Origin: a virus
Taxonomy: Duplodnaviria > Heunggongvirae > Uroviricota > Caudoviricetes
Reading direction: 5' to 3' (one strand)
Length of the DNA: 17,112 nucleotides
Virus record (IMG/VR): IMGVR_UViG_2526164667_000027
The position numbers and the translations under genes were made by a program. The number at the start of each line of letters is the position of its first letter. The first letter of the stretch is position 1. Shown piece after piece: positions 12,066 through 12,282 of this stretch. Under the pieces are notes generated by a model. That model worked only from the letters and a program-made list of their open reading frames with translations. It was not told the origin of the DNA and made no database searches.

Positions 12066-12109
12066 GATAAAAAATTAGTGCAAGAAGACAAAGAATCGCC
12101 TTGCGCTAA
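12066..12109 (-). terminator. Lambda tI/sib-like hairpin, copy B
   Basis: ataaaaaaTTAGtGCAAGaagacaaagaatcgcCTTGCGCTAA, about 85% identical to copy A at 8391-8433. Confidence 0.55.
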
Positions 12110-12110
12110 T

Positions 12111-12282
12111 GCTCTGAAACAGGTCACTAATATCATCTAAATAGTTGACTCATAGTGACAGCATGTGTTGTGTCTTGCAGTATTATATAGCCTATTATTT
12201 AGATTGAAGCCATCATAATCTATTGATGTTAATGGTTTTTTATTGTTTGTTGTTCGGCTTTTTATACTAATTTGAGCGAAAC
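12111..12282. other. Lambda-type attR-like site: P arm, lambda core GCTTTTTATACTAA, then a B'-like arm
   Basis: ACAGGTCACTAATAtCATCTAAaTAGTTGAcTCATAGTGACaGCATgTGTTGTGT...CAGTATTAT is close to the lambda attP P arm with the same spacing to the core. The core at 12257-12270 has five T where lambda has six. It is followed by TTTGAGCGAAAC, which resembles the E. coli attB B' arm (CTTGAGCGAAAC). Confidence 0.6.

Follow-up and report, generated by a model that had tools for sequence, protein, structure and literature searches.

A probable fossil of a lambda-type attR junction inside the right arm of an ompW-integrated lambdoid prophage

Introduction

Does a lambda-type attachment site that lies among type III effector genes mark the end of a prophage, and if so, of which one and when? 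The question is raised by positions 12060-12337 of a stretch of tailed-virus DNA of 17,112 nt (IMG/VR record IMGVR_UViG_2526164667_000027), the whole of which is called the window below. Type III effector repertoires are shuffled at effector loci, which lie at the right ends of EHEC and EPEC lambdoid prophages, and it is in such surroundings that the site is found. A sequence-only reading of the window had seen a P arm, a lambda core and a B'-like half-site, the layout of the right end (attR) of a prophage at attB-lambda, followed by horizontally acquired DNA where ybhB would be expected. It left two explanations: that the effector cassettes to the right are a separate element inserted beside the prophage, or that the junction is a secondary or ancestral one. 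The ancestral junction is the alternative that our results support. Probably, 12060-12337 is the fossil attR of an Sp3-like prophage that was later captured into another lambdoid genome and is now inert.

Genomic setting of the site

The window is the right arm of an ompW-integrated lambdoid prophage (Sp9 in O157 Sakai; CP-933P-like; PPompW). Many EHEC chromosomes of O26, O111, O103 and O145, as well as the PPompW phage records LC567818-41, match its segment 11900-12600 with 100% identity. The map below is based on the RefSeq annotation of an identical genome, together with Sakai and another O157 strain.

7-3141: J
4174-5659: tail fibre
Between the tail fibre and 8382: nleG pseudogene, then nleA (minus strand)
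8382-9660: lambda-family attP and integrase pseudogene
9655-9794, plus strand: C-terminal tail-fibre remnant with terminator (duplicated tail-fibre end)
9824-10744, plus strand: nleH1-2
10810-11378, plus strand: nleF
11382-12058, minus strand: remnant of IS1414 (IS256 family), from megablast to full IS1414 copies; annotated 'IS1414 partial' in Sakai
12060-12337, plus strand: P-O-B' site
12338-12540, plus strand: serT-type attP relic, from similarity to the attP region of phage Evi
12546-12824, minus strand: espO1-2 effector gene, from annotation
Right of espO1-2, in this order: nleG, espM1, IS630 remnant, nleG, from RefSeq annotation of identical genomes

In the same annotated genomes an ompW fragment, the true prophage end and attR, followed by yciE/trp, lies about 1.1 kb past the window, and the site at 12060-12337 is some 6 kb inside the prophage. 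The locus is therefore not ybhC/ybhB, as whole-genome context might have revealed it to be, and the site does not end the present prophage, as had been suggested. The gene content of the DNA right of 12283 is borne out by the RefSeq annotation of identical genomes, in which espO, nleG, espM1, the IS630 remnant and nleG are all present. Sp9 has been reported to excise as a single unit through its ompW att sites (PMC2669165), so that the effector genes on the right-hand side are part of that mobile unit and do not form a separate neighbouring element.

Anatomy of the P arm and core

The elements recognized between 12060 and 12540 are as follows.

12060-12255, plus strand: lambda-type P arm, from alignment with lambda 27529-27742
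12075-12109: sib/tI hairpin
12119-12131: arm-type site P1, ACAGGTCACTAAT, identical to lambda
12151-12165: arm-type site P2 (inverted), two mismatches in the 15-nt stretch beginning CATAGTGAC
12256-12270, plus strand: 15-nt common core GGCTTTTTATACTAA, one T fewer than its lambda counterpart GCTTTTTTATACTAA
12261-12267: 7-nt overlap TTTATAC, intact
12271-12337, plus strand: B' half-site TTTGAGCGAAAC and ybhB-side host flank of attB-lambda
12329-12337: putative illegitimate-recombination junction with 9-nt microhomology GTATTGCGC, common to the ybhB-side flank and the serT-type phage arm
12342, 12354 and 12519: TRTACCAA arm repeats
12376-12401: serT-type terminator hairpin
12410-12463, minus strand: degenerate 3' part of tRNA-Ser, about 54 nt with about 9 mismatches

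Lambda 27529-27742 aligns to window positions 12060-12274 with 80.6% identity over 216 nt (E 2e-50; BLAST and MAFFT). The identity of the P arm, 80.3% overall, is unevenly spread, being 87.5% in the distal part, which holds sib, P1, H1 and P2, and 67% in the part next to the core. The P arm had been described from sequence as matching lambda nearly base for base over 12111-12270; a lambda P arm is indeed present, but its identity is about 80% and the match begins at 12060. The claim that an arm-type site lies at the correct spacing to the core holds fully, P1 being 142 nt from the overlap and 32 nt from P2, both of them the lambda values.

With up to two mismatches allowed, the core 15-mer has no match in the window other than 12256-12270. 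Judged from the sequence alone, the core-type Int sites have fared differently: next to an undamaged overlap, the B' site keeps 11 of 12 positions, whereas the left site, altered by the loss of one T from the core, is degenerate (TCGGCTT versus CAGCTTT in lambda). A minus-strand ORF of 83 aa (12137-12388) was treated as spurious; neither it nor an extended espO ORF matches Pfam. An Rfam search of 11900-12700 at E-values up to 1 returned neither sib nor any other RNA family, its sole match being a spurious one to CrcZ.

A captured piece of the ybhB-side flank

From 12271 onward the lambda P' arm no longer aligns. Instead, positions 12271-12337 are identical to the native E. coli ybhB-side flank at 60 of 67 positions, with one additional 8-nt deletion, and two of the apparent mismatches are natural E. 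coli polymorphisms. The captured flank ends about 16 nt short of the position where ybhB would end. In several genomes of E. coli, Shigella and Escherichia sp. it aligns with unoccupied attB or with the attR of a lambda-type prophage. The 55-nt flank block alone is significant (E 3e-10 against all E. coli genomes, 9e-15 by local BLAST), and the whole P-O-B' site with its flank matches the attR of the lambda-bio phage DN1 with an E-value of 8e-72. Since the ybhB-side flank is present and lambda P' is absent, 12060-12337 is a P-O-B' junction of attR type. The B' half seen earlier is thus genuine, although 67 nt long rather than 12, and the earlier choice of attR over a second attP, which had been made to depend on what follows the core, withstands the comparison with E. 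coli backbone beside attB-lambda. No ybhC-side (B arm) sequence occurs anywhere in the window, nor does a matching attL (B-O-P').

The captured flank is of Escherichia type. Among 185,579 species-representative genomes, the 19-mer of its hairpin block is limited to E. coli, Shigella and Escherichia sp., bar four unrelated MAG matches that are near chance expectation, and the attB flank of Salmonella is more distant from the window flank than that of E. coli. The window-specific variant of the flank, GAGCGAAACAAAAAGATAAAAAGTTG, has zero exact matches in the same 185,579 genomes, which consequently offer no donor species.

The window has just one further lambda-type P arm, at 8382-8660. It lies 3.68 kb upstream (start to start), and not 2.6 kb as had been stated; its core also differs. 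The site to which it belongs (8382-9660) is a complete lambda-family attP, comprising a P arm and a P' arm that has P'1-P'3-like sites; an integrase gene comes next, and the overall identity to lambda attP-int is 68%. Its core, CCTCCTTCTGACATGGAAGTTG, is unlike that of lambda, which indicates a different integration specificity. The integrase gene, which ends at about 9660 and is the only lambda-family integrase gene nearby, is an N-terminally truncated and frameshifted pseudogene.

The presence of this genuine attP-int module so close by might lead one to see in 12060-12337 a second attP (P-O-P') of a lambda-like phage, with a B' resemblance arising by chance. That lambda P' fails to align, while ybhB-side flank aligns over 67 nt at the E-values given above, makes this so improbable that we reject both the second attP and the chance match.

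The window has two copies, 93% identical, of a tail-fibre C-terminal end and its terminator hairpin, at 5588-5726 and 9655-9794. The second copy adjoins the truncated integrase gene, at what is a fusion point of two former prophage right ends.

An adjacent serT-type attP relic

When the window is set against both the native flank GGTATTGCGCC and the ECA64 prophage arm GTATTGAGC, the end of the captured flank falls in the 9-nt microhomology at 12329-12337. Beyond it, 12338-12540 is 82.8% identical (E 3e-31) to the attP region of Escherichia phage Evi, which sits between the tail-fibre/cargo region and the integrase gene (PF00589) of that phage. The same segment is also 78% identical to a prophage right end at serT, where that prophage is integrated with yccA and hyaA on either side. 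After the tRNA-Ser remnant there follows a P'-like stretch with a 52-nt deletion. A functional tRNA was sought with ARAGORN, which reports 0 genes in the whole window, and with Rfam, which gives no tRNA match in 11900-12700 at E-values up to 1. By these similarities 12338-12540 is the attP relic of a serT-integrating, Evi-like lambdoid phage.

The segment 12060-12540 is thus occupied by two dead att sites of unlike specificity, side by side. The sequence-only reading had overlooked both the serT-type relic and the small size, 67 nt, of the surviving host flank. The Sakai record has no annotation between the IS1414 remnant and ISEc8, and the P-O-B' site and the serT relic together account for an unannotated gap of 480 bp in a heavily studied genome.

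It is at this point that one can weigh whether 12060-12337 might still be a live end, namely an attR still in use by a lambda-type prophage in tandem or next door, with espO-nleG-espM1-nleG as a separate island. The P-O-B' layout and the intact 7-nt overlap are what such an end would have. However, the locus is ompW rather than ybhC/ybhB, the window has neither attL nor B arm, and the lambda-family int is a pseudogene associated with a different core. Furthermore, Sp9 is reported to excise as one unit (PMC2669165), and just 67 nt of host flank separate the core from the attP of another phage. We regard a live end as extremely unlikely and reject it.

Paralogy with the right end of Sp3

In Sakai, prophage Sp3 lies exactly between ybhC and ybhB, and its integrase is a pseudogene (see also PMC2669165). 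The order at its right end is tail fibre, nleB2-1, nleC, nleH1-1, IS1414 fragment, nleD, attR and ybhB. Local BLAST shows the block in the window to be colinear with this end: the tail-fibre end is 93% identical, the nleH region 85.3%, and attR with its flank 80.9%. Given this colinearity, the tail-fibre remnant, nleH1-2, nleF, IS1414 remnant, P-O-B' site and 67-nt flank of the window are together an old, diverged paralogue of an Sp3-type right end.

The IS1414 fragment of Sp3 is 164 nt long and inverted; it comes just after nleH1-1 and overlaps the hypothetical gene ECs_0849 (locus L041, 43403-43566).

A related cassette is found elsewhere. The nleH-nleF-IS1414-end segment (window 9763-11596) has an 88.5% identical copy at a prophage right end beside yodB in O103:H2 PV16-126 (locus L038, 8960-10760), where the internal break in IS1414 falls elsewhere and a ykgJ-like fragment comes next. 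A partial tRNA-Ser at that place suggests that the PV16-126 prophage is integrated at serU.

The edge between IS1414 and the P arm

The IS1414 remnant in the window retains the right end of the element and about 220 C-terminal codons, and lacks the N-terminal 550 bp or so and the left end; a full IS1414 transposase gene measures 1209 bp (NZ_CP059918). Homology to IS1414 stops at 12058, precisely at the edge of the P arm (12060). The observation that the IS abuts the tI/sib hairpin therefore stands, the element being internally truncated exactly there. Its proposed cause, that the IS was cut by the event that created the att junction, is plausible only, and a later local deletion is the simplest reading. 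The Sp3 paralogue, too, carries an IS1414 fragment between nleH and attR, which makes it most economical to suppose that nleH, the IS and attR were already linked in one block and that a local deletion took place within it. In addition, the occurrence of the nleH-nleF-IS1414 cassette in O103:H2 with the IS truncated elsewhere implies that the insertion of the IS is ancient, so that the 12058/12060 edge is again best read as later.

The remnant keeps, at about 11798-11863 on the minus strand, the embedded frame of astA (EAST1 heat-stable enterotoxin), which is annotated at the equivalent position in an O157:H7 genome.

Origin of the junction

The order and the mechanism of events that we propose are these. 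An Sp3/CP-933K-like lambdoid phage with lambda att specificity would have entered attB-lambda of an Escherichia, in the ybhC/ybhB intergenic region, by an Int crossover within TTTATAC. Its right end (tail-fibre end, nleH, nleF, IS1414 and sib-P-O-B'), together with 67 nt of ybhB-side DNA, would then have moved to another lambdoid genome, most likely through imprecise, lambda-bio-like illegitimate recombination. The right breakpoint would be GTATTGCGC, at which the P arm of an Evi-like, serT-type attP became fused to the host flank. Recombination between prophages and additional deletions would finally have placed the block in the exchangeable effector locus of Sp9/PPompW. Capture is supported by the P-O-B' site and contiguous bio-side flank being inside a phage genome and ending in a 9-nt microhomology; chromosome-derived att sequences of comparable divergence (81-87%) also have a precedent at the end of PPompW (PMC8112680).

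A point against this reading is that classical lambda-bio excision would fuse host flank to DNA of the same prophage. Here the host flank is fused to the attP of another phage, which requires either a hybrid prophage or no fewer than two molecules.

An alternative route would be by prophage-in-prophage integration. A host prophage carrying a captured attB-lambda (B-O-B' with short ybhC/ybhB flanks) beside a serT-type attP relic could have taken in an Sp3-like guest, after which a deletion reaching from the int pseudogene at 9660 to the guest tail-fibre end would have removed attL and most of the guest. PPompW and its relatives do carry chromosome-derived attB copies that are used by other phages, a mechanism demonstrated in this family for att specificities other than lambda's (Nakamura et al. 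2021, PMC8112680), and the flank in the window is short, at 67 nt, and about as diverged as those published copies. The duplicated tail-fibre end, with its second copy beside the truncated int, would likewise fit one large internal deletion. Against this, an unoccupied copy of attB-lambda was seen in 0 of 50,697 phage records, and among IMG/VR, metagenome and E. coli genome matches no flank-serT junction has an unoccupied attB-lambda or an attL partner beside it. The window has no ybhC-side sequence either, and one more capture junction is needed than for direct capture of attR.

No donor or intermediate of the attR block was found, so that the capture route is not distinguishable on that score from integration into a prophage-borne attB copy. 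Nevertheless, the absence of unoccupied attB-lambda copies mildly favours direct chromosomal capture, and we consider the prophage-in-prophage route rather unlikely, if a good deal less so than a live prophage end. The only match among the phage records to span the core and both flanks, a 2-kb unverified Salmonella 'phage' contig, was taken to be host chromosomal DNA.

Distribution and present state

The P-O-B' site occurs at 99% identity or more in 542 of 5,426 complete E. coli genomes. It exists there in only two states, intact (248 genomes) or with ISEc8 at 12299-12306 (O157:H7), and none of the 542 is interrupted at either att core. All 17 instances in IMG/VR and metagenomes have the same arrangement. 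When contigs from IMG/VR and metagenomes were searched for exact copies of the P arm, the core and the flank-serT junction, only Sp9-like contexts came up, one of them (L032) a slightly diverged variant, and no P arm more than 90% identical was found outside Sp9-like prophages in E. coli genomes, IMG/VR or metagenome contigs. The 100% conservation of the site is a matter of recent common descent and makes no statement on function.

In O157:H7 the ISEc8 copy, of 2.4 kb, sits within the ybhB-derived flank and is bordered by an 8-nt target duplication, GTTTTTCG. Non-O157 EHEC and O55:H7 keep the flank uninterrupted, as it is in the window. A further variant is PPompW_132418 (LC567822, from O145:H28), in which window position 3641 is fused to 11482. 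The tail fibres and nleA are deleted, as are the attP-int pseudogene, nleH1-2, nleF and some of the IS1414 remnant, but both att relics are kept.

With no cognate integrase, a degenerate left core-type site and no genome rearranged at the core, the P-O-B' site would today be an inert fossil passenger, and this is what we conclude. We also considered a co-opted element, in which the tI-like hairpin and the serT-type terminator would end transcription of espO1-2 and shield nleF and nleH from antisense read-through. Transcription of espO1-2, a minus-strand gene, runs toward the relics, so that its transcripts meet the serT-type terminator first and then the tI-like hairpin. A U-run comes after each hairpin on that strand, and the sib/tI-like one folds there at -14.7 kcal/mol. 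However, the fold z-scores are modest (-2.1 and -1.7), O157:H7 tolerates the 2.4-kb ISEc8 between the two hairpins, and a consensus terminator scan called neither of them, which leaves the case to rely on the folds. We find co-option doubtful; the tI-like hairpin may, with the serT-type terminator, stop espO transcripts, in at most a minor role.

Comparison with known systems

The attR of Sp3/CP-933K in O157:H7 is the closest in layout, with the same sib hairpin, P arm, TTTATAC overlap, B' and ybhB-side flank, and the same order of tail-fibre end, nleH, IS1414 fragment and attR. It is, however, a true prophage-chromosome junction with ybhB and bioA beyond, whereas the site in the window has a flank of 67 nt with an 8-nt deletion and a degenerate left core, and lies inside the ompW prophage. 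The lambda-bio phage DN1 (MF374379) likewise carries P-O-B' and bio-side host DNA in a phage genome, and 12060-12337 aligns across its attR and flank. DN1 differs in that its host genes (ybhB, bioA-F) extend over about 10 kb and are 97-98% identical to those of E. coli, against 67 nt with no gene at about 90% in the window, and the flank in the window adjoins the attP of another phage rather than the phage's own early region. With lambda attP the site shares the P arm with sib/tI, P1 and P2, the spacing and the overlap sequence; unlike it, the site has no P' arm or adjacent int, its core is one T shorter and the core-proximal arm is 67% identical.

A third comparison is with attB-in-PP_1/2/3. 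These are chromosome-derived copies, about 81-87% identical to their sources, in PPompW (including its end) and in related EHEC and EPEC prophages (Nakamura et al. 2021, PMC8112680). They derive from yecE, ykgJ/ecpE and ompW, may be unoccupied or occupied, and in some cases have been shown to be used by other phages. They have in common with the site described here the PPompW family, the effector-locus region and the presence of short host att-flanking DNA in a prophage. The site in the window differs from them in being ybhB-derived, in having the attR half only, the P arm replacing the B arm, and in showing no sign of use. Neither ybhB, ybhC nor serT is mentioned by Nakamura et al. (2021, PMC8112680).

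Significance

It was already established that transducing phages have hybrid att sites, that effector loci are exchangeable and that PPompW contains att sequences derived from the chromosome. The P-O-B' site is a further example of an established type, a useful mechanistic footprint but not a surprising one. What it adds is a provenance: the nleH1-2/nleF cassette came from the right end of a prophage once at attB-lambda, and a piece of the host junction travelled along. With the P-O-B' site, the serT relic, the upstream attP-int and the attB-in-PP sites, the right arm of Sp9/PPompW preserves, in layers, the traces of at least five integration specificities. It also cautions that prophage boundaries are not callable from att-like motifs alone. 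The P-O-B'/serT fusion provides a concrete junction to seek in wider surveys, although its practical value is modest.

More tentatively, and with a likelihood that we put well short of even, the relic could be a direct footprint of the way in which host att-flanking DNA and effector cassettes enter EHEC effector loci, namely by repeated, lambda-bio-like capture of the right ends of resident prophages by other phages. If so, this would answer the question raised by Nakamura et al. (2021) of how attB sequences enter prophages, and effector loci would be built by serial events resembling specialised transduction, not by homologous exchange alone.

A last repeat was seen among the effector genes themselves: a 54-nt direct repeat, 80% identical, at 13221-13274 and 15866-15919, lies between effectors, upstream of the nleG and IS630-remnant regions.
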